Source: an uncultured bacterium
GTDB lineage: Bacteria > Patescibacteriota > Doudnabacteria > UBA920
NCBI GenBank assembly: GCA_963749445.1
Contig: CAVVMJ010000008.1
Coordinates: 1 to 63,147 of the forward strand
Length of the DNA: 63,147 nt
Reading direction: 5' to 3'
The notes below the pieces were generated by a model. The model saw nothing but the letters and a program-made list of their open reading frames with translations. It had not been told where the DNA came from and searched no databases. Every line of letters begins with the position of its first letter. Position 1 is the first letter of the stretch. A program made the translations under genes and the position numbers. Of this stretch, positions 1,523-59,692 are shown in pieces.

Positions 1523-1855
1523 TTATTTTTCAGAAGGTATTATTATTGCAACTTCAATCACCGTACTTTTGTTTTTCCCCACGGCCAAACCGGCAGGGAT
1601 TGCAGTCACTTTGGCCTGAACGGTTCCCTGTTCGCTTTCAAGGCTGATGGTTTCGCCAATGCTAAGGGGCTGTCCGTAAAGGTGTTTCTTCAAAGTTCCC
1701 TTGCCGTTATTTTTCCGCAAACTTTCAAGTTCGTTATTGCTTATCAAGATGGCGCGGATTTTCCCGCCCTCGGCAGAAACTTTTAAATGTCTGTCTTCCA
1801 AAGGATTGGAAGAGCCGCCAAAACTGCCGCGTTCAAAACCTTTTGGTCTTGCCAT
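1523..1855 (-). CDS. hypothetical protein (110 aa)
   Basis: Clean ORF directly downstream of a small acidic ORF. No motif recognised. Confidence 0.45.
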   Translation of the reverse strand: MARPKGFERGSFGGSSNPLEDRHLKVSAEGGKIRAILISNNELESLRKNNGKGTLKKHLYGQPLSIGETISLESEQGTVQAKVTAIPAGLAVGKNKSTVIEVAIIIPSEK

Positions 1856-1867
1856 AAAATAATTAAA

Positions 1868-2023
1868 TTACAAATCTAATTCGTTAATATCAATCCCCAA
1901 ATTTTCTATCCGTTCCAAAGCCTCGTCCGCGTCGCCATTGTTAATTTGCTCGGCCAGCTCTTCCTTTAAGCCGTCTTCATCCAACTCCATTCTTATTTCG
2001 TCTTCTAAATCATCAAGCGGCAT
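1868..2023 (-). CDS. small acidic protein (51 aa, MPLDDLEDEIRMELDEDG...)
   Basis: ATG..TAA ORF below the track cutoff, 12 nt upstream of ORF 1523..1855. A possible two-gene pair. Confidence 0.3.
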   Translation of the reverse strand: MPLDDLEDEIRMELDEDGLKEELAEQINNGDADEALERIENLGIDINELDL

Positions 2024-2025
2024 AT

Positions 2026-3506
2026 TTATGCATTAGAGGCAGAAACTTTATTGTCATTTCTACCATCAATCAAAATAATGTTTTCTTTACCAGTTAGTTC
2101 AGTCCTGTTTAAAATATCGGTAACTCTTTTATGCTCTTCTTCCGTAAAATAAATAATTACTTTAAAAGATGATGTTGTTTTATTGGCTTTTTGATAAATC
2201 TCAACTTGCTTCTGTAAATTCTGTTCAAGTTTTTTATTGCTTGCCAACTTAAATTCCACCAATGTTTTATCCGCACTCCCTTTTGAAACCTTGAAATCAA
2301 CTGGCCCTCTACCATTATTAACTTCCCGATTAATATCAAAAGTGCTTGACTCATGGCATACCAAGGCCAAAAAGCAACTGCAAATCTTTCTCGCCTTTTA
2401 TTCTTTCCGCCATTGTGATAAAAAAGCCTGTAGCCATCATTGTTCTCAATATATTCTTTTAAAATTTCAATTTTCTTTTTTGCTTCTTCATTGCTGTTTT
2501 TTGCTGGGGCATAAAAATTTTTATTTTGTAGTCCTGCAACAAACTGTTGAACATTGCTTATATAGAATTTTTGAGAAAAAATGACTTTTTCGGCGCTGAT
2601 GTTTTCCGCAAGATCACCGCTTTCTTCTTTAGATTTAATGTAGTAGTCAATCAATCTGTGGAAATCTCTGGATGGTGGCAAAAGCGGCAAGGGCTTTTTC
2701 TTGTTTTGTCGGTTCTTTTTCTTTCTTCGGGTCTTTTGGAATTTGGCTCAAAAAATAATTGTTTATTTTGAAGCGTAATTCGTCATCAGCTATAGCATTA
2801 GGTATTCTTTCAAAATCTTCAAATAAATCTTTTTTGTTTATCCAAGTTTCGTCTTTTGTTAATAATTCTTTGGGCGTTAAAATAACAAAATCGTTTTTAA
2901 ATTTAGGTAAATCAAAAGTCATTTCTTCCCACGTTTCGGTTTCGTAATTAAATCGAGCCCGGGGAACTCTAAACTTTGTCTCTTAAATTTTCGTTTAATA
3001 TACTTTTGGCAAAAGTTTGGGTGTAATCAAGTAAAAATTCTTTGATGAGATTGGTTGCAAAATCGCTAATGTTATCTTTACCAACACCGTCTTTAATCAG
3101 ACAAAGTTTTTCTAAATGGCTTCCTTTAGTAATCTTTTCCTCTCCAAATTCACTAAAAATTTTGTGTAAATTTTCGTTCAAAGCTCTTCCAAAATCCAAA
3201 CCAAGCGCGCTTCCTTTATTACTAGTGGCAGAAAAGCCCAGCCAGTTTTGTTCAACCTCCTTAAAAATATACCATGCTTTTAGCGCACCCTTATCTATCG
3301 TTTGCGATGTAGATTTCTCTTTCAGAAATACCAGATATTTGATTATGTCATCGTGCAATTGCTTGATATTTTTTCTTTTTGCTATTGAATAATAAAAATG
3401 GGTCAATAAAAAGTGGTAAATCAGCCACTAAAGAAATATTAAAAGCCCCATATGTTTGCAGGTCTGTTTCTCTTACTTTAAAATGGTCCGAAAAATATAA
3501 ATCCAT
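2026..3506 (-). CDS. ~490-aa protein with C-terminal PD-(D/E)xK-like nuclease core; reading frame interrupted about 4 times
   Basis: Minus-strand ORF pieces starting at ATG 3506, then 3406-2969, 2922-2647, 2690-2157 and 2370-2026, read as one protein. The C-terminus has GRGPVDF...VEFKL. Breaks lie at A-rich runs (~3375, ~2965, ~2660, ~2370). Confidence 0.5.
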
Positions 3507-22870: not shown

Positions 22871-24049
22871 TGGCGTTATTATATTTTGAGTTTGTCCAAT
22901 TTTATCTAAAATCTTTTTACTTTCATCCGCCGTGGCTGGGCGGGGCTGGGAGTTTTGGATGATGACGGGGATAAGTTTAATTGAATCTAGTTTGGCCGGG
23001 ATGCGGGAACCTTGCAAATCATCGGTGCACCCTCTCTGTCCGCCTCCGGCGGACATCTCCCCCAGAGGGGGAGAAGGGGGGCAGCCGCCGTTTTTTGACA
23101 CTGTGATTTTTAACGCCAACCCTTCTTTGGTATCCTGGCTCCACATTTGGTCAAAAATAAAGTTGCCTAAGGAATAAAAGATGTATTTTCCCTCATATTT
23201 TTCTACGGCCTGTACCCAGTGCGGATGGCTGCCAATTACCATGTCCGCGCCGTCGTCAATCGCCGCGTGGGCGAATTTTATTTGCGCGTCGTTCGGCGTG
23301 CGCGTGTATTCCGTGCCGGCGTGCATGGTGACGACTACGAAATCCGATTTAGATTTAAGATTTAAGATTGCGGATTTCAGATTGTCTAAGTCCTCAATGC
23401 GGGCAACGTAATTATTTGTCGTTTTGCCGCCGTCGTTTACGGAAGCATAGGACGCTCCCACAAATCCGATTTTTATTCCATTTGTTTCAATTATTGCCGG
23501 TTGCCAGGCCTCATTTAAATTATCTGCCGGCGCCTGTATGTTTTAGGCCAAAGCGGTCCAATTGGGAAACGGTAAAATTTAAGCCGTCCGGACCGCCGTC
23601 AAGCGCGTGATTGTTGGCGAGGTTGAGAATAAAAAAATTGTTGTCCAATAACCCGTCTAGGCTGGAACTGGGCGCGCCAAATATTAACGAGTGCCCGCCA
23701 ATGACAGGGTTTTTTGAAAACGGGGATTCCAAATTGCCAAAATTAAAATTTACGGAATGCAAAATGTCCTGCATGCCTAAAAAAGGATACAGCGGATTGC
23801 CCGCCGCTTTTGCCGCCGCGGCCACGTTTCTGGAAAGGTTAATGTCGCCCACGGCCAAAAATGTTGCGGTGGTAGTGGTTGGGATGTTTGCTGGGCCAGT
23901 TTTGGGCTTTGCCGGTAAAAATCGCTTAGGCTTTTGTCGGCGGCGGCTGTGGTAACGGATAGTAGGGTTTTTGGGAGCCGAGAATTATGCGGCCATAAAA
24001 AAATACCCAGCGCTACGAAGAGTATGGCAAAGAGAAGCGGATGATGATT
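22868..24049 (-). CDS. CapA/PGA_cap-family metallophosphatase-like protein; at least 2 frame breaks, N-terminus uncertain
   Basis: GNLESP, ANNHALDGG, MHAGTEY, GSHPHWVQ. ORFs 22868..23461 and 23520..23858 plus an N-terminal TM segment. Breaks at ~23490 and ~23870. Confidence 0.7.
23040..23090. repeat. double-hairpin element (family E) inside the capA reading frame
   Basis: GTCCGCC-tcc-GGCGGAC plus TCTCCCCC-aga-GGGGGAGA. Translated in frame as ...PPSPPLGEMSAGGGQRG... Confidence 0.7.
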
Positions 24050-25287: not shown

Positions 25288-25321
25288 AGATTTTTCGCAT
25301 AATTAAAGGCAGGTTTAGGGA

Positions 25322-25350
25322 TTGACAAAATGCTAAAAAAGGAGTATAAT
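25322..25350 (+). promoter_or_regulatory. consensus sigma70 promoter with no downstream ORF
   Basis: TTGACA-17 nt-TATAAT, exact. Confidence 0.6.
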
Positions 25351-25356
25351 TGTATA

Positions 25357-25766
25357 TCAGACAAACAAAAAATTGAAAAGGAAATAGGGAGGTTTTTATT
25401 TACCCCAGAAACGGTTTAGGTTGTAAGGTGTAGCGGCCAGTACAGAAATAAGTAGTAAGGTATAAGGTGTGGCGTCCGGTGCGGTCGTAAGGAATGGGTT
25501 TTAGGTAACATATACCTTAAAACCTACCACTGCACCGGCCGCCAAGGCCAATACCCTATCACCATTTCTCGTACCGGCGGCCACGCCTTATAACTTATTA
25601 CCACCTTGTATCCAGTATCCTATTTGCAAGTCGCGAAAGCAGGTATCATCCCTCCTATTACTTGCTCTTAGCACCAAGCAAAGGTTCGTTGGCGTTTGTC
25701 AGCAGCTTTTCACTTGCAGGTAGGGTCTTGGGTGCAATTATTAAATCCGCTAGCGCGGATTTTTTG
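25357..25766 (+). ncRNA. candidate ~410-nt structured RNA of unknown class
   Basis: Bounded by the consensus promoter and by AATCCGC-tagc-GCGGATT+TTTT. It has no ORF. A closing helix pairs AAUAGGGAGG (25383..) with CCCUCCUAUU (25650..). It contains the family C hairpin. Confidence 0.3.
25413..25612. repeat. family C hairpin element (long copy)
   Basis: GGTTTAGGTTGTAAGGTGTAGCGGCCAGTA ... CGGCGGCCACGCCTTATAACTTATTACC. Confidence 0.7.
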
Positions 25767-26160
25767 ATTGCGAATTTCGGATTGCGGATTGGTTTTTCTT
25801 GAAGTTTTCTAAATAAACGATTAAACCCCCTATCTCGCCCGCAAGCTTTTCCATTTTTAGATTTATAGCTTCAAATTCGCTTTGGCTGATATATCCTATT
25901 GATAGGGCAATATAAAGTTGGTTCCTGACCTCGCCGACAGAACCTTTTGCCATTCTTAAAAATCTGACGAATTCATTGTTGTTATTCTTTTCAAATCCTT
26001 CAACTATTGTTGAGCTTACCGATACTATTGCCCTTCTAATCTGATCCTTTAAACCAAAATCTTTGCTCCATTTAGCATTGGCGCTTAAGTCGTAAATAAT
26101 TTTAGTTGCTTCTAGGGAACGTTGCCAAACAGGCAATTCCTCAAATTTTCTGTAATTCAT
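25750..26160 (-). CDS. four-helix-bundle protein (23S rRNA intervening-sequence protein family)
   Basis: RRAIVSVSSTIVEGF...FLRMAKGSVGEVRNQL pattern typical of this family. Confidence 0.7.
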   Translation of the reverse strand: MNYRKFEELPVWQRSLEATKIIYDLSANAKWSKDFGLKDQIRRAIVSVSSTIVEGFEKNNNNEFVRFLRMAKGSVGEVRNQLYIALSIGYISQSEFEAINLKMEKLAGEIGGLIVYLENFKKNQSAIRNSQSKNPR

Positions 26161-27009: not shown

Positions 27010-28551
27010 TTAAGTTTTGTCTTTGCCTTTTAGGCGCAAGATTATCGGAGTTCCATAAAAGTCCAGGTATTTGGTAATTGAATTTTCCAGGAATTTTCGG
27101 AATTGGTTGGAGATGGCCGCGGGGTGGTTGACTTTGAGCTGGAAGGCCGGCGGATTAACGTCAACCTGATGCAAGCTGAAGACTTTGGGTTTTTTTTGGT
27201 CGCGCAAAAGCTTGGGCGGATTTTTTTGCATTATTTTGTACAGAAAATCTTTTAAAGTTTCCTCGTCAATCATTTTATGGCGGCGATCCCAAATCGGTTT
27301 TATCGCGTCTACGGCTTCCTTTAATCCTTCGCCTGTCAGGCCGGAGACAAAAAACAGCGGACACATCCACAAAAACGGGAAGTGGTGGGAAATGTAGTCG
27401 CGGATATTTTGATATTTATCATCACTGGATTTATCAAGCCCTCGACCTCTCTGCCCCTTCGGGGCATCTCCCCTCGCCAGGGGAGAAGGGACCAAATCGC
27501 ACTTGGTGGCCAAAATAATGCAGGCTTTTTCCAAAGCAAAAATTTCCTGGGCCACGCGCTGGTCCTGCTTGGTAATTTCGGCGCTCGCGTCAATCACCAA
27601 AAAACAAATGTCGGACCGGCGTATGGATTTAAAGGTTTGGAAGCCGGAAAAAACATCCGGCTGCTCCTGGCGGTATTCTTTTTTCTTTAATCCCGCGGTA
27701 TCTATGAACGTGTAATTTACATCGCCGATTTTTATATCGCTGTCTATCGCGGTGCGGGTCGTGCCCGGGATCGGGGAGACGACGACGCGTTCTTCATCCA
27801 GAATTTTATTGAAGATGCTGGATTTGCCCACATTGGGTTTGCCGACGATGGATACCGCGATGGAATTTTTATTTCCGGGATAAATATCATCGCTTGGGTT
27901 TTTATCAGCGGTTCGACCTCTCTGCCCCTTCGGGGCATCTCCCCTCAAAAGGGTAGAAGGGAACAGTGTTGCTATTGCATCCAGCATATCCCCAATCCCA
28001 ACCCCCGAGAGCGCGGATACGCCGAATATTTTTTTAATTCCTAAAGCCAGGAAGCCCGCCAGTTTTTCTTCGCGGTTTTTTATGCTTTCCAGTTTGTTGA
28101 CCGCGAGCAAAACCGGCTTGTCAATTTTGCGGAATTTTTGCTTGAGCGATTGGGGAATTGAGCTAAGCGGTTCTTTGCCGTCAACCACCCAGACCAACAT
28201 ATCGGCTTCCTTTAAAGCCACGTCAATTTGCCGGCTGACATTTTGCTCCAGTTCCTGGTTTATTTGGCCGGTTTGGGTGTGACTGTGGGTTTTGTTGTCT
28301 CCGCTGACGGACAAGCCCGCCGTATCCAGCAAAGTAAAATCCACGCCGTTCCAGGAGGTGTCCAAATATTGCCGGTCGCGGGTGGTGCCGGCTATATCGG
28401 AAGTCACGGCCAGCCTGCCGCCGGCAATTTTATTGAGCAGGCTGGATTTGCCCACATTGGGCTGGCCGACCAGGGCCACAATCGGTAAAATTTTATTTGA
28501 GGATGTCATAATTTGAATAATTGACATGGGTTTTATGACATAATTTAACAA
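27010..28551 (-). CDS. der: ribosome-associated GTPase Der/EngA with two in-frame repeat insertions
   Basis: Two G domains (GQPNVGKSS/DTAG/NKLE and GKPNVGKSS/DTAGL/TKCD) and a KH-like C-terminus. The true start may be the internal Met near 28509. Confidence 0.9.
   Translation of the reverse strand: MLNYVIKPMSIIQIMTSSNKILPIVALVGQPNVGKSSLLNKIAGGRLAVTSDIAGTTRDRQYLDTSWNGVDFTLLDTAGLSVSGDNKTHSHTQTGQINQELEQNVSRQIDVALKEADMLVWVVDGKEPLSSIPQSLKQKFRKIDKPVLLAVNKLESIKNREEKLAGFLALGIKKIFGVSALSGVGIGDMLDAIATLFPSTLLRGDAPKGQRGRTADKNPSDDIYPGNKNSIAVSIVGKPNVGKSSIFNKILDEERVVVSPIPGTTRTAIDSDIKIGDVNYTFIDTAGLKKKEYRQEQPDVFSGFQTFKSIRRSDICFLVIDASAEITKQDQRVAQEIFALEKACIILATKCDLVPSPLARGDAPKGQRGRGLDKSSDDKYQNIRDYISHHFPFLWMCPLFFVSGLTGEGLKEAVDAIKPIWDRRHKMIDEETLKDFLYKIMQKNPPKLLRDQKKPKVFSLHQVDVNPPAFQLKVNHPAAISNQFRKFLENSITKYLDFYGTPIILRLKGKDKT
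27440..27490. repeat. family E double-hairpin inside der (G domain 2)
   Basis: The 33-nt core CGACCTCTCTGCCCCTTCGGGGCATCTCCCCTC is identical to 27914..27946. It encodes PSPLARGDAPKGQRGRG. Confidence 0.85.
27911..27961. repeat. family E double-hairpin inside der (inter-domain linker)
   Basis: Same 33-nt core. It encodes TLLRGDAPKGQRGRT. Confidence 0.85.
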
Positions 28552-28664: not shown

Positions 28665-30067
28665 TTACCACATCAACTTTGCCGGATCAAGCTTAAGATT
28701 GGGCGGCGGCAGGGTGACTTCGGCGCTGTTTAGGGAATTTTTTAGGAATTCGGCCGCGGCGGGTTTTGGGTTGACCTCGTAAAAAATGTTTTGGCTTAAC
28801 GGCTGGCCGGCATAATTAAATTCCCAGACGGTCAGGCCGGCTTCGTTAAAGTCCGGCTGGCGTTTTCATAATCCACACTGTTATGATTGCTGGAGGCCAT
28901 CCAGACCATGGCTTTTTCCTGGGCGAGCTTGCCGATGGCAAAAGCGTTTTTAAAAAAATTATGGATGTCGGCATCGGTTTTGCCCGGGCAGTTTATTAGG
29001 ACGTAGGCGCCGGTATCGGTTTGGATTTGCGGACAGATTAAATTGGTGGACGGATCCAGACTCAGCGACAGAATGTTATTAAAGCTGTTTTGTTTTGACA
29101 GCGAATAAATCCGGAACATTTCGCCCGGGGAGAGGTTGGTATGAAAGTGGTCGGCAAAAGTGTCCAGCAGGCTGTTGAGTTTGCCGGCGTCGGTGATCAA
29201 ATTTAAGTTAAGGATTTTGTCTTTAAACGCGTTGATGACTTTTTGCTGGCGCGCCGATCGGGCAAAATCCGAACCTTCCGGTCCTTCGGCGTGGCGCGAG
29301 CGGGCGAAAATCAGCGCGCGCGCGCCGTCCATGTGCTCCCAGCCGGCGGTAAAGGTTTGCGGGGGCAGGTAGCCGGTGCCGCTGTCGGGATATTGGTGAT
29401 CGGTGAAAGTGCGGTCAATTTTAATATCAAGCCCGCCGATTTGGTTAACGGCTTTTTCAAAGCCGGAAAAATCCACCACCGCAAAATAGGGGATGCTCAG
29501 GCCGGAAACGTCCTGGGCGGCGCTGATGGCCCATTGCCCGGCTTCGTTATAATCGTGGTGTTTAAGGTAGCCGTCGGAAAAAGTTTGGTTGATTTTGGCT
29601 TGTCCGCAATTGTTGCGGCATATTGGCCCACAGGTCGCGTGGGATTGAAGTGAGCACCACTTCGCCGTCTGCCGGCCGGATTTGGGCGACAATCATCGTA
29701 TCGGTCAAATACGGGCCGTCGTGGCCTTCGCCGCCGATACCCAAAAGCAGAATATTGATCTGTCCAGATATCTTCTCCCGACCAATCGGGTTTGGCCGCT
29801 TGTGCCCTGCAGGACCGAGACGATTTTTTGGAGAAAGGACAATTTGCGGCCCACGAAAATTTTATCGGAAAGGTTCATGGCACGAAATACCACTATGCTG
29901 CCGAGCACAACAATGACTAAAGTGATTAAAGCTGCGATCGTTTTGAGTATTTTCTTTCGGTTTTTTTGGCTTATTGCCGCGACCCAGCAGGTTGATTTTG
30001 GGGGGATTGGCAACTGGCTGTCCTGACTTCCGGACGTTTGAGGCTGCGCGGAGTCAATGTTCTTCAT
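28665..30067 (-). CDS. LytR-CpsA-Psr (LCP) family protein; at least 3 frame breaks
   Basis: N-terminal TM helix, LLLGIGGEGHDGPYLTDTMIV, then FARSRH... Four ORF pieces with breaks at ~29750, ~29690 and ~28850. The C-terminal piece ends at TAA 28665-67. Confidence 0.75.
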
Positions 30068-30210
30068 AGTTTGGAGGTAAAGACTTTATCCAGCACCACT
30101 TTTCAAGTCGATTTAGTTGGTTTGAAGCCCCGATTGGCGCGACAATTTACCGCCTTCCAACTGGTGGTATATTAGTTACAAGTATTGCAGATATTTATGG
30201 TTATTTTGAT

Positions 30211-42693: not shown

Positions 42694-42745
42694 AGCTTCC
42701 CCTCCTTGCTGAGGAGGGGTGGACGCCGGAGGCGGACGGGGTGGT
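42694..42745. repeat. family E-like double hairpin
   Basis: CCCCTCC-ttgctg-AGGAGGGG plus GACGCC-gga-GGCGGAC. Confidence 0.55.
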
Positions 42746-42847
42746 TGGAGTATCTTGCGCCGATTAAAATGTATATATCCGTGTATATACTAAAGTATAT
42801 ACTTTTAAACAAGGCGGCCGGCTGTCCCAGCCGGCCGCCTGAAAAAT

Positions 42848-43474: not shown

Positions 43475-43479
43475 CAAAA

Positions 43480-43600
43480 CCGCGGAGCCCCTTCTCCTTT
43501 TGAGGAGAAGGTGGCCGAAGGCCGGATGAGGTTGCAGTCATCACAAAAGGAAACAACCTCTCCCTAACCCTCCCCTCAAGAGGGGAGGGAAGCTCCGCGA
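43480..43600. repeat. composite family E element
   Basis: Outer CGCGGAGC/GCTCCGCG, with inner CCTTCTCC..GGAGAAGG, GGCC-gaa-GGCC and CCCTCCCCT-caag-AGGGGAGGG. Confidence 0.6.
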
Positions 43601-43613
43601 AAAGACCCCGCGA

Positions 43614-50640: not shown

Positions 50641-50730
50641 GATTGACAAGATTGACATGATTGAGCAAGATTGACAAGATTAAGGACGCAGCAAAAAATC
50701 ATGTCAATCTTTTAAATCTTGTTCAATCAT
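50641..50730. repeat. word-hairpin (GATTGACAA / TTGTCAATC-type words)
   Basis: Lies between a TGgTATAAT box (50630..50638) and the mutM ATG (50734). Confidence 0.7.
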
Positions 50731-50733
50731 CCA

Positions 50734-51712
50734 ATGCCCGAATTGCCCGAAGTCCAAACTATTGCCGCTGAGTTAAACCGGAAATTAAAAAATCGGATAA
50801 TTAAATCCGTTACTGCTAACGCGCCTAAAATGGTCGCCGTGGGGCCGGCCGTTTTGCCGCCAAAACGGCAAGTTAAAAGTTATAAAGTTATAAAGTTTGT
50901 AAAGTTGCTTAAGGGGCAAAAAATTGTTTCAGTAAAGCGGCGAGCGAAATTGCTTATTATCAACCTCTCCCGCCCCTTTCGGGGCACCCTCCCCACATCT
51001 TGGGGAGGGGAAAGAAGGGAGAGCTTCGCTCTCGCTTTTGGTGCATTTAAAGATGACCGGGCAGTTTATTTTTGAGGATAAAAAATTGCGGGAAAAAACA
51101 GGGGGGGAATACCGTTTACTCAATAAACTATCGGCGCCTTTGGAGCAATTGCCCGGCAAGCATACGCACGTGATTTTTGAATTTACGGATGGCAGCCGGT
51201 TGTATTTTAACGACATCCGCAAATTCGGCTATTTAAAATTGGTGCGCGATGATGAAATCAATCAAGTGCGCGAGCTTCAGGAATACGGCCCCGAGCCGTT
51301 ATCTAAAAATTTTACAATGACTGCTTTATTGACGGCCGTCAAAAAAGCAGTCACAAAGAAAATTAAGCAAGTCTTAATGGACCCAAAGGTTGTGGCAGGG
51401 ATCGGGAATATCTATTCCGATGAAATCCTGTTCCATGCCGGCGTGCGGCCGAAGCGTGCCGTGAAATCATTATCTGATAAAGAATTATCAGCCATCCATA
51501 AGTGGATTAAGCCGGTGCTCATTAAGGCCATAAAAGCCAAAGGCTCCTCGGTCGGGGATTTTGTGAGAACGGACGGTAGCTGGGGGCAAATGGGCAAATA
51601 TCATTTTGTCTACGGCCGCAAAGGGCAAAAATGCAAGAAATGTGGCTCCATTATCGAGGCAGTAAAAATTGGCGGGCGGACTGGGTCGTTTTGTCCAAGA
51701 TGCCAGAAGTAA
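50734..51712 (+). CDS. mutM: formamidopyrimidine-DNA glycosylase; repeat insertion plus frame break
   Basis: MPELPEV N-terminus, VKRRAK, HLKMTGQ, C-terminal CKKCG...CPRCQ zinc finger. Break within 50936..51040. Confidence 0.85.
50962..51022. repeat. family E double hairpin inside mutM
   Basis: GCCCC-tttc-GGGGC plus CCCTCCCCA-catct-TGGGGAGGG. Confidence 0.7.
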
Positions 51713-58654: not shown

Positions 58655-58924
58655 ATGGGGGGACTTATGTCCTTGTCGTATTTGTTGATGAAGTGCGCCA
58701 CCTTGGCGGGTGGCAAGATGAGACCGGTCGTGGCATCGGGGGCGGGAAGGAATCTTGCCCCGCAAGATGACATCCGGGCACAGAGGGCTAATTTGAAGTT
58801 AGCGCTCCTCCTGGCGGCGGCAGTGCTTTCTATCGGCCCGATTGCCGTAGGGTGGCCGTTGAAAGCCACTGGTTACATTCAGGCAGCTTGGCACTGGTTC
58901 CGCTGCCTGGTGTGGGGATGTTAG
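58655..58924 (+). CDS. small membrane protein (89 aa)
   Basis: One TM helix (LKLALLLAAAVLSIGPIAVGW). GC-rich, with an overlapping antisense ORF, so the call is uncertain. Confidence 0.3.
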   Translation: MGGLMSLSYLLMKCATLAGGKMRPVVASGAGRNLAPQDDIRAQRANLKLALLLAAAVLSIGPIAVGWPLKATGYIQAAWHWFRCLVWGC

Positions 58925-59454: not shown

Positions 59455-59692
59455 CTGTTATGTTTTACTCAACCCGCTCCGCACCCCTTAAAATAAAACC
59501 CTCACCCTAACCCTCTCCCAGAGGGAGAGGGGAATAATATTTTCTTTTTTGCAATCCGTCGGTGATGTGTTGGTCGTGATAGTTATCGTAAGATAAACAT
59601 CAGGGACAACATCCTGTCATCATCGGCGGGTTGGAGGATGGAAAGCAAACAATTAACAATTGACGATTAACGATTAACGCTGGTGGTCAAAG

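Follow-up and report, generated by a model that had tools for sequence, protein, structure and literature searches.

Here, we describe a short, structured DNA repeat, two copies of which lie in frame inside der, the essential gene for a ribosome-assembly GTPase, in a member of the Doudnabacteria with a tiny genome; the analysis covered a contig of 63,147 nucleotides (the window). With a probability of about 70%, the two der segments are copies of a selfish, dispersed, structure-conserved repeat of triplex type, tolerated in permissive loops and behaving much as Rickettsia palindromic elements (RPEs) do. Judged by its design, the element appears to be a variant of the BoxC/PIT/TMECO intrastrand-triplex repeats in which a hairpin replaces the usual 3-nt second loop. 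Copies would spread, or be refreshed, by a copying or gene-conversion process acting on folded DNA, and selection would purge those in essential genes unless their length is a multiple of three (51 nt here), their frame is free of stops and the site is tolerant. Survivors would be translated as disordered loops of about 16 residues, rich in Pro, Gly and Arg and without a role of their own in the protein, and the post-G4 loop of Der domain 2 and the inter-domain linker would be permissive sites, repeatedly occupied by different variants across the Doudnabacteria. From the distribution alone we infer that the element is mobile; translation of the segments, their selfish nature, the way in which copies are made and a possible part played by DUF559 are likewise deductions from sequence.

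Element copies in der and the surrounding window

The initial annotation had reported an identical 33-nt core at two places in der, and this core occurs exactly twice in the window (27443-27475 and 27914-27946; 0 expected from 100 shuffles). The two copies (A and B, Table 1) have 34 nt of identity and differ in the loop of their second hairpin (GCCA against AAAA), with a single base different in the next 12 nt. As had been claimed, both are in frame within one intact, stop-free ORF, one in G domain 2 and the other in the inter-domain linker, and the G motifs are preserved in both domains; the copy in G domain 2 follows the G4 motif. G1 and G3 have the canonical form in each domain. G4 is NKLE in domain 1 and TKCD in domain 2, and in the orthologue alignment it shows nothing beyond conservative substitutions. 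With all 513 codons open, the ORF can be aligned with orthologues over its whole length, and all six reading frames of the der copy are open. On the plus strand, copy A comprises the complement of a third block (27445-27452), a small hairpin (27452-27466) and a pyrimidine/purine hairpin (27467-27486); in copy B the pyrimidine/purine stem is weakened by one mismatch (TCTACCCT / AGGGGAGA).

Comparison with orthologues supported a reading of these segments as loop insertions or replacements, since many orthologues in Patescibacteria lack them, as does the Der of B. subtilis, E. coli and T. maritima, with a 16-residue gap in B. subtilis Der opposite the copy A peptide. The expectation that they would map to surface loops was also supported: alignment to PDB Der chains leaves gaps in the solved structures opposite both segments, and in an AlphaFold model the coil with pLDDT<50 at residues 200-227 (513-aa numbering) includes most of the copy B peptide, while that at residues 363-377 overlaps the C-terminal half of the copy A peptide. 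The G domains flanking both low-pLDDT segments are confidently modeled. Der is very probably functional, with the two element segments as passengers. In small GTPases of the Rho family, an insert region between beta5 (G4, TKxD) and alpha4 forms a conserved functional helix. We take the post-G4 loop of Der domain 2 to be the same topological position, where copy A likewise forms an extra surface segment; the Rho insert indicates that this loop of the GTPase fold tolerates insertions, but it differs from copy A in being of protein origin, with no DNA repeat behind it.

A covariance model and a hairpin scan, run on the 63-kb contig and the retrieved related loci, detected eight copies of the family in the window (Table 1), four of them inside ORFs (two in der and one each in capA and mutM). 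Copies that the initial annotation had listed in capA, mutM and intergenic DNA were all found at the places it gave. Its description of the mutM copy as in frame had to be corrected: in the assembly a 1-nt frame break falls inside the element's small hairpin, so that the upstream flank shares its frame with 50719..51075 and the downstream flank with 51038..51712. A separate extra base is present in capA near 23510, away from the element copy, and lytR is split across three frames; because the assembly carries these indels, small details of the copies may be unreliable. ORFs beside the intergenic copies encode ribonucleotide reductase, a CobA-type adenosyltransferase and a DUF4430 protein. A further candidate at 58752-58790 (model E=1.4) proved on reading of its sequence to be a non-member, and nowhere in the window did an Rfam family score as high as its gathering threshold.

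Table 1. Positions of the der gene and of the element copies detected in the 63,147-nt window.
Feature	Position	Strand	Evidence
der (EngA) ORF, 513 aa	27010..28551	-	TIGR03594, 396 bits; full-length alignment to 2hjg and 4dcs; orthologue alignment
der copy A, 51 nt, PSPLARGDAPKGQRGR, residues 355-370, directly after G4 TKCD, GTPase domain 2	27442..27492	-	covariance model, E=2e-17
der copy B, 51 nt, PSTLLRGDAPKGQRGR, residues 198-213, linker joining GTPase domains 1 and 2	27913..27963	-	covariance model, E=4e-17
capA-like (PGA_cap) copy, PPSPPLGEMSAGGGQRG, Cys-flanked variable loop, in frame with flanks	23027..23078	-	covariance model, E=5e-18
mutM/fpg copy, antisense to gene, beta-hairpin turn NLS(G)P|LS(M)LVHL	50960..51018	-	covariance model, E=8e-5
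Intergenic copy directly downstream of ribonucleotide-reductase ORF	42696..42748	+	hairpin scan only
Inverted pair of copies, spacer about 18 nt, flanks cgcggagc/gctccgcg	43478..43602	.	covariance model and hairpin scan
Inverted-pair member 1	43489-43535	+	covariance model, E=0.23
Inverted-pair member 2	43553-43591	-	covariance model, E=4e-5
Intergenic copy without small hairpin, CCCTCTCCC-tct-GGGAGAGGG-tta-GGGTGAGGG	59496..59534	-	covariance model, E=0.38

Triplex-type architecture and comparison with known repeats

On the der sense strand, the element runs from a pyrimidine arm (TCTCCCCT) through a short loop to the complementary purine arm (AGGGGAGA), followed by a small GC hairpin of freely varying stem and then by a G/T-rich block (AGAGAGGT) in which the purine arm is mirrored. 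The earlier description as two hairpins only is incomplete, as this third, mirror-symmetric block is also present. Hairpins of at least 7 bp with the pyrimidine arm first are found in all eight window copies and in 12 copies of related loci; 22 were counted in 141.6 kb (window plus related loci) against a shuffle mean of 3.45 strand-hits, which corresponds to about 1.7 hairpins expected by chance because each hairpin is scored on both strands. That structure is kept while sequence varies, as the initial annotation proposed, agrees with the cross-phylum copies: the small hairpin, left unconstrained in this count, pairs in 67 of 83 unique copies versus about 2 of 83 when shuffled. In alignment it is 100% paired with compensatory changes in three of five pairs, a score reached by 0 of 500 shuffles.

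Secondary-structure prediction returns the two hairpins only. For the third block, triads permitted in the purine motif (G*G-C, A*A-T, T*A-T) occupy 95% of positions when each copy's own tail is used, 79% with the tails of other copies and 77% with a direct-repeat template; the fit was equalled by 0 of 5000 permutations. In the der copies, copy A among them, the third block is imperfect (7/8 triads), and the intergenic copy at 42696-42748, laid out as CCCCTCCT-tgctg-AGGAGGGG with small hairpin ACGCC-gga-GGCGG and mirror block GGGGTGGT, has 8/8. A closing helix between the 5' leader and the G-rich tail, giving the three-way junction that RNAfold draws for some copies, was considered and rejected as not general (best helix 4.8 bp on average vs 4.7 bp shuffled); the mirror, triplex-type relation is preferred. 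Among unique copies, 58 of 126 are stop-free in all six frames compared with 45 +/- 4 when the variable parts are shuffled, which gives only modest support to the idea that the element may be 'designed' to be stop-free.

In BoxC/PIT/TMECO repeats, a C-rich arm is followed, after a loop, by its G-rich complement and then by a mirroring second G/T-rich block (Holder et al. 2015, PMC4666352, where Hoyne and Maher and Bachellier are cited for earlier studies). These repeats have been known since the 1990s, with no function, partner protein or manner of spreading established for them. The published TMECO pattern is CCCTCNCCC-N3-6-GGGNGAGGG-N3-GGGNGAGGG (PMC4666352), which window positions 59499-59531, alone among the window copies, match exactly (0 expected). 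The der-type variant shares with these repeats the three-block design, GC-richness, multiple copies, presence in many bacteria, frequent inverted pairs and variable loci. It differs in having a covarying hairpin of 14-24 nt in place of the 3-nt loop of TMECO: the second loop is 3 nt in the published motif and 1-6 nt in the ITxF search (PMC4666352), whereas the der, capA and mutM copies carry a hairpin of 14-19 nt there, the 14 nt of der being outside the published motif definition. The arms of der-type copies are TCTCCCC(C/T)/GGGGAGA, not CCCTCNCCC.

Location and host range also differ. TMECO copies are reported to be always intergenic in E. coli (PMC4666352), and the literature searched describes BoxC/PIT/TMECO repeats as intergenic, whereas the present variant is found in an essential GTPase and other core genes of several phyla: inside der, capA and mutM here and, in relatives and other phyla, in frame in DnaX, MiaA (three copies), TsaD, transketolase, ThrA and MutS2. 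In published work the repeats come mainly from Proteobacteria and Cyanobacteria (PMC4666352), and the der-type variant extends to Patescibacteria, Bacteroidota, Chloroflexota, Clostridia and others. Holder et al. report no stable triplex in vivo (PMC4666352).

RPEs (Ogata et al., as summarised in PMC10969869) are repeats of about 150 bp reported from Rickettsia genomes, fall into ten identified families with a conserved peptide for each, and in many cases lie in frame in unrelated housekeeping genes, where they are read through as peptides judged compatible with the fold. The resemblance to RPEs suggested by the initial annotation stands for behaviour, as both are palindromic repeats with many copies in one small genome, in frame in unrelated protein genes. 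It does not extend to architecture: der-type copies are far shorter (48-51 nt), cross phyla, use several frames and both orientations, and carry the triplex-type third block, a feature by which the element groups with the BoxC/PIT/TMECO repeats and not with the RPE sequence families. Peptides encoded by the der-type variant vary with frame and orientation (RGD..., GEM..., or antisense PSLS...).

REP/BIME and REPIN-RAYT repeats are extragenic palindromes tagged with GTAG/CGTC (PMC3733652). Der-type copies resemble REP and REPIN in being short, GC-rich palindromes of high copy number, in forming inverted doublets (43478-43602 in the window and in capA of relative L001) and, possibly, in having a dedicated nuclease or transposase gene flanked by repeats. 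On direct reading, the GTAG/CGTC tag is missing from the ends of der-type copies, and half of the copies are genic. The candidate partner is a DUF559 protein (Vsr-like, PD-(D/E)xK) and not a Y1 HUH transposase, and no RAYT (Y1 transposase) gene was present among the window ORFs checked. True GTAG...CTAC palindromes are found in frame in the Der linker of other Doudnabacteria as a separate family. MITEs are transposase-dependent miniature elements with terminal inverted repeats and a target-site duplication. The present element differs from them in that content is replaced, not inserted, and in that no target-site duplication was found at the Der G4 loop or at capA site 1, which is filled in L001 and L005 but empty in the window, L002 and L007.

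Distribution in relatives and competing explanations

Relatives among the Doudnabacteria carry different elements, or none, at the same loops of Der, CapA and Fpg. The capA copy at 23027..23078 is also present in L001, with another hairpin family in L002 and L007 and unrelated sequence in L005, and capA site 1 has two inverted copies in L001 and a single copy in L005, the window, L002 and L007 being without any there. About eight variant states occur at the Fpg site, where two orthologues (P0135 and P0142) have a homologous element peptide in frame and most (308 aa) are without it. The Der G4 loop holds an element in at least six scattered lineages, and one Der lacking it there (P0005) is nested inside an element-bearing clade (support 98/84). 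At this loop the element takes the place of a segment of similar length, KxKAAGxLGKN, that is conserved in close relatives. The segments, all termed insertions in the initial annotation, are loop insertions or replacements, and the G4-loop case is a replacement and not an addition to an empty site; no clean empty-versus-filled site was found at capA site 1 or the Der G4 loop. Likeness within genomes was also observed: the two der copies of the window have a short hairpin in common, and the linker copy of L001 has the same long-loop form as L001:94, a non-syntenic locus. A decayed element was sought behind the AT-type loop of L002, with no convincing similarity. Beyond the Doudnabacteria, the der-type variant is present in at least 117 genome stretches from at least 10 phyla, contrary to a reading as a peculiarity of one lineage, and the DnaX element occupies an identical site in three Patescibacteria-type (CPR) lineages. 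A literature search for in-frame repeats in CPR, Saccharibacteria or Patescibacteria found no description of such elements.

The selfish-repeat reading has to be weighed first against a structure that serves the host, such as an element of the mRNA or DNA that holds ribosomes back where domains meet, determines how stable the mRNA is or how it is processed, or flags places for recombination, replication or repair, with the protein loop as a by-product. Hairpins are intact, with compensatory changes, at orthologous Der sites in proteins 64-81% identical and at DnaX and Fpg sites across deep divergence, which could equally reflect host-level selection for structure; one der copy sits exactly at the inter-domain linker, and intergenic copies lie directly after stop codons. 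Across the element region the window and L001 agree at 51/52 positions, compared with 81% identity for the whole der gene, but the element is not a clear conservation outlier because flanking der segments are about 96% conserved too (nearby coding windows reach 96%, z about 2.2, suggestive and not decisive). We regard a host-serving structure as unlikely: close relatives lack the element or have unrelated variants at the same loop, genic copies are found in both orientations (antisense in mutM and DnaX), which argues against a single RNA-level role, and PIT motifs have no promoter or terminator activity in E. coli (PMC4666352).

Repeated local origin, in which slippage or template switching acts on the loop-coding DNA of GC-poor genomes and convergence takes the place of a mobile or copied element, would fit the lack of target-site duplications, the replacement of segments without clean insertion and the nested additions by which hairpin loops enlarge (long forms in L002 and L005). 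It is nonetheless quite improbable given a motif of 23 specified bases with a hairpin at a fixed place in those 117 or more stretches and at least 10 phyla, for which a rough, uniform-base estimate of chance occurrence is about 1, and given the two identical 34-nt stretches in one gene, the two-copy cassette ends common to a Saccharibacteria genome and the window (84% identity) and the covariation of the mirror block with the purine arm. An artefact, either misassembly of a repeat into der or decay of der as a pseudogene in an indel-rich genome, is more doubtful still; the frame breaks in mutM, capA and lytR and the many split genes of L001 point in that direction, but der is open and aligned over its full length with its G1 and G3 motifs canonical and only conservative changes in G4, and independent assemblies (ENA, JGI and Logan) have these elements at matching sites. 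Removal of the segments after transcription or translation (intron-, intervening-sequence- or intein-like), leaving a mature Der without them, is scarcely credible: nothing direct speaks for it beyond a gene for a 23S-intervening-sequence-type protein 850 bp away and the rRNA gene insertions for which CPR bacteria are known, while the copies are exactly 51 nt, in frame and stop-free, which would be needless if they were removed, no Rfam intron or ribozyme reaches its gathering score in the window, 16 residues are too few for an intein, and bacterial mRNA is not rejoined after RNase cleavage.

Wider meaning and the association with DUF559 genes

As selfish repeats tolerated in loops, the der segments would carry the idea of 'selfish DNA in protein-coding genes' beyond Rickettsia, to repeats shared across phyla and to the candidate phyla radiation. 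They would also show concretely where conserved proteins can acquire lineage-specific loop insertions, which matter for annotation, alignment, phylogeny and the reading of 'expansion segments' in CPR (Patescibacteria) proteins; for the single der locus the practical message is modest.

A more far-reaching and tentative reading, which we hold to be possible but on the unlikely side, is that the der, fpg and capA loops are recurrent landing pads for an undescribed cross-phylum mobile DNA, consisting of a DUF559 (Vsr-like) gene framed by inverted triplex-motif repeats together with miniature forms of 40-60 nt. The miniatures would be copied to new sites or over decayed copies by machinery that recognises DNA structure and not sequence and, with little intergenic space in tiny CPR genomes, would survive mainly as stop-free, in-frame loops of essential genes. 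If so, the orphan BoxC/PIT/TMECO repeats would gain a partner enzyme and would be a general source of loop insertions in conserved proteins. A crude motif scan of the window and of the loci syntenic with der detected no DUF559 gene, the window ORFs checked included no identified transposase or nuclease, and a literature search found no description of DUF559 with repeats.

Among 117 loci chosen by the repeat pattern alone, seven contain DUF559 genes (PF04480, E 1e-26 to 1e-41), six of them within 605 nt of a repeat. Repeat copies lie on both sides of the DUF559 gene in four loci (L028, L059, L064 and L107) and are inverted in the last three. The inverted pair at 43478-43602 appears, from its alignment with one of these loci, to be a gene-less counterpart of a DUF559 cassette, and with this association it offers a candidate pairing of enzyme and repeat that can be tested. 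Over 101 aligned columns, the window pair is 84% identical to the L064 (Saccharibacteria) cassette with its ends joined, and both have the same loops, TTTTG and CAAG.

Two in-frame copies in der

Exactly two occurrences of a 33-nt string are present in the window (27443-27475 and 27914-27946; 0 expected by chance), and both lie, as the initial annotation had stated, in a single open frame (27010..28551, minus strand) encoding full-length Der/EngA (TIGR03594, 396 bits). By the names of Der homologues the contig, whose full 63,147 bp make up the window, belongs to Candidatus Doudnabacteria (Patescibacteria). Over 34 nt the two units, each 51 nt (17 codons), are identical; beyond this the 4-nt loops of their second hairpins are unlike, and the next 12 nt match at 11 positions. 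Copy A encodes PSPLARGDAPKGQRGR (residues 355-370) and copy B PSTLLRGDAPKGQRGR (residues 198-213). Alignment to B. subtilis Der (2hjg, 4dcs) bears out the proposed placement of one copy in G domain 2 and one between domains: copy A is opposite a 16-residue gap immediately after G4 of GTPase domain 2, and copy B is in the linker joining the two G domains. The 51-nt unit lacks stops in all six frames, which across the family is only modestly commoner than chance. An AlphaFold model of Der (505-aa gene call; alignment input of 22 orthologues; mean pLDDT 73) is confident over the KH-like domain and the two G domains, and shows linker 192-219 and loop 355-369 (200-227 and 363-377 of the 513-aa ORF) as coil with pLDDT <50, spanning most of the copy B peptide and the C-terminal half of the copy A peptide. 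We regard the two segments as most likely selfish or neutral passengers (probability about 0.7), which would persist because they are in frame, stop-free and in permissive loops, and whose renewal would come from copying of repeats elsewhere in the genome.

In the orthologue alignment both domains have canonical G1 and G3 motifs. G4 departs from the usual NKxD, with NKLE in domain 1 (common to the closest relatives) and TKCD in domain 2. Domain 1 also has a 13-residue extra segment, DNKTHSHTQTGQIN (28237-28317, minus strand), common only to L001 and L002 (loci of relatives); it is A/C-rich, lacks a hairpin, scores below 50 in pLDDT and falls outside the repeat family. The der copies at 27443 and 27914 are direct repeats spaced exactly 471 bp (157 codons), and recombination between them would remove domain 2 motifs G1-G4 in frame, a built-in hazard given the reported instability around TMECO sites.

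Triplex-type architecture and structural conservation

All copies were oriented pyrimidine arm first before comparison. Each consists of a pyrimidine arm, loop, purine arm, spacer (TTA-like or a small GC hairpin) and G/T-rich block, the last mirroring the purine arm, often with T in place of A (arm / block: AGGAGGGG / GGGGTGGT, AGGAGAAGG / GGATGAGGT, GGAGAAGGGG / GGGGATGAGG, GGGAGAGGG / GGGTGAGGG). Under purine-motif triad rules, 15 copies found without reference to the tail fit their own tails at 95% of positions, versus 79% for other copies' tails and 77% for a direct-repeat template; 0 of 5000 permutations equalled the own-tail fit, and der copy A scored 7/8. On the plus strand, a conserved CTCTCT leader is complementary to the third block. 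Tail pairing with the 5' leader was rejected as not general across copies.

The BoxC/PIT/TMECO intrastrand triplex motif has the same three-block design (Holder et al. 2015, PMC4666352), and window positions 59499-59531 match the published TMECO pattern exactly (PMC4666352). The element is a new variant within these repeats, rather than within Rickettsia palindromic elements (RPEs), and differs in carrying a hairpin where they normally have a 3-nt second loop. The suggested RPE likeness holds for behaviour (in-frame residence) but not for family membership; the two adjacent stem-loops first described are hairpins, but the description was incomplete, as the "first stem-loop" is the hairpin in second-loop position and a third, mirror block is present.

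A scan of one genome per species (GTDB set) with CTCCCC-N3-6-GGGGAGATG-N9-24-CAGAGAGG placed the der-type pattern in at least 117 genome stretches. Among the matches listed are Doudnabacteria, Saccharibacteria, Moraniibacteriota, Clostridia, Dehalococcoidia, Anaerolineae, Bacteroidaceae/Prevotellaceae, Acidimicrobiia, Mesorhizobium, Agrobacterium, other Rhizobiales, Synergistaceae and Bdellovibrionales. With the N9-24 part left free by the pattern, 67 of 83 unique versions among the matches listed form at least three more Watson-Crick pairs from the ends inward (about 2 of 83 when shuffled), the pairing versions having small-hairpin stems of 27 different sequences. The small helix is paired throughout (100%) in an alignment of 36 sequences, with both-side changes in 3 of 5 pairs (24 cells) and a covariation score reached by 0 of 500 shuffles, which supports the proposed selection on structure. 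The constraint may act on DNA rather than RNA; in favour of DNA are the two orientations of genic copies and the reported inability of RNA to form purine-motif triplexes (PMC4666352). The main rival to passenger status is a role of the structure for the host, which appears improbable.

Residence, turnover and frame breaks

A pyrimidine-arm-first hairpin scan and a covariance model together gave 8 copies in the window. Host genes of loci picked by repeat pattern were confirmed with Pfam, and genic der-type copies at these loci use several frames.

Element copies in the window and in genes of pattern-selected loci
Feature	Location	Strand	Remark
der copy A	27442..27492	-	in frame
der copy B	27913..27963	-	in frame
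capA copy	23027-23078	-	in frame with both flanks
mutM copy	50960-51018	-	frame switch inside small hairpin
element copy	42696-42748	+	hairpin scan
inverted pair, first copy	43489-43535	+
inverted pair, second copy	43553-43591	-
element copy	59496-59534	-	triplex-motif match at 59499-59531
transketolase	L113		in-frame der-type copy
MiaA (IPP transferase)	L111:1862-3088		three in-frame der-type copies in one ORF
DnaX	L058:6217-7878, L060:4484-6160, L063:2953-4719	antisense	one common site, in frame
ThrA	L027 (Bacteroidales)		in frame
MutS2	L030 (Bacteroidales)		in frame
TsaD	L054		in frame
SAM-dependent methyltransferase	L036		in frame

The DnaX site is between "AKAVNC" and the CxxC zinc motif in three different CPR (Patescibacteria-type) lineages. 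In-frame residence of the der-type variant is general, and the window der locus is a further clear instance, not a unique case. Neither Holder et al. nor the literature searches yielded a description of such repeats in Patescibacteria or at genic positions.

Seven Der orthologues were compared at the DNA level. The G4 loop has the short-hairpin form of the window in L001 and L006, a long-loop form in L004, a doubly nested form in L005 (~90 nt more loop DNA than the window), a plain triplex-motif form in L007 and no element in L002, which has SAKKASGKLGKNAAS instead; at this loop the element substitutes for a segment of similar length. The linker has four different forms among the four closest relatives. 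In a tree built from 55 Der sequences after masking of the two loops, protein P0005 (from L002), without the G4-loop element, is nested in an element-bearing clade (support 98/84), and element-like loops occur in at least six scattered lineages. The tight clade P0016/P0020/P0021 has three different states, with a canonical TMECO-type motif in frame in P0016. At capA site 1, L001 has an inverted pair and L005 a single copy, and the window, L002 and L007 have none; the Fpg beta-hairpin turn shows about eight states among orthologues. No target-site duplication was visible at the compared capA and Der G4 sites.

One hairpin form is common to both window der copies, and the L001 linker copy shares its form with a non-syntenic L001 copy, differing from the window's der form. 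Such similarity suggests that each genome copies or gene-converts its own elements. A local de novo origin of the hairpins, an artefact or pseudogene, and post-transcriptional removal of the segments are all unlikely.

Der linkers of other Doudnabacteria (L125:1001-2398, L127:1001-2533, L006:5155-6633) carry perfect in-frame GTAG...CTAC palindromes, such as GTAGGGGAGGGTTTGAAACCCTCCCCTAC (VGEGLKPSPT) and GTAGGGAATGGTCGCGACCATTCCCTAC (VGNGRDHSLP), a second, REP-like repeat family on the same landing pad. A reverse-transcriptase (RVT_1) gene abuts the der 3' end at L125:2395-3398. CapA Cys-flanked loop 2, which has a triplex-type copy in the window, has a different hairpin family in L002:6546-7832 and L007:15465-16700 (peptides HPELVSGSR...DSGSEAGMT).

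Related copies had also been reported in frame in capA and mutM; both copies exist and that in capA is in frame, but in mutM as assembled the N-terminal flank KLLIINLSRP and C-terminal flank SLSLLVHLKMTGQ are in different frames, the hairpin loop shifting the frame by 1 nt (50972-50985; TTTC versus TTC of the der copies). Most Fpg orthologues (308 aa) have no insert at this turn. P0135 and P0142 carry a homologous peptide there in frame (NLSRPS...LGAPSPSL...ASLSLLVHL), so the break is specific to the window sequence. An additional A near 23510, unrelated to the element, separates GGC from GAT in capA; lytR (28832-30085) is spread over three frames, and split genes are numerous in the close relative L001 too. 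Because of the capA and lytR breaks and these split genes, assembly indels are a likely cause of all three frame breaks, which may instead reflect real gene decay.

DUF559 genes near the repeat

Among the matches listed, 7 of 117 loci, picked by repeat pattern alone, have a DUF559 nuclease gene (PF04480, E 1e-26 to 1e-41), in 6 of the 7 at most 605 nt from the repeat. Repeat copies flank the gene on both sides in L028, L059, L064 and L107, and are inverted in the last three. In L028 (Phyllobacteriaceae, about 1700-3257) the gene is between two nearly identical ~120-nt direct copies of an inverted dimer, an arrangement of direct repeats of REPIN-like dimers of the der-type repeat. DUF559 is, by association only, a candidate partner of the repeat. 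No DUF559 gene was found in the window, where the inverted pair (43478-43602) is 84% identical to the joined ends of the cassette in L064 (Saccharibacteria), with the same hairpin loops and an 18-nt spacer in place of the 360-nt gene.

In the window (25319-25733 and 25750-26160), a PF05635 gene (23S-rRNA-intervening-sequence-type four-helix bundle) is between pth and dprA, adjoining a repeat that has three partial copies in L001, one of them inverted.
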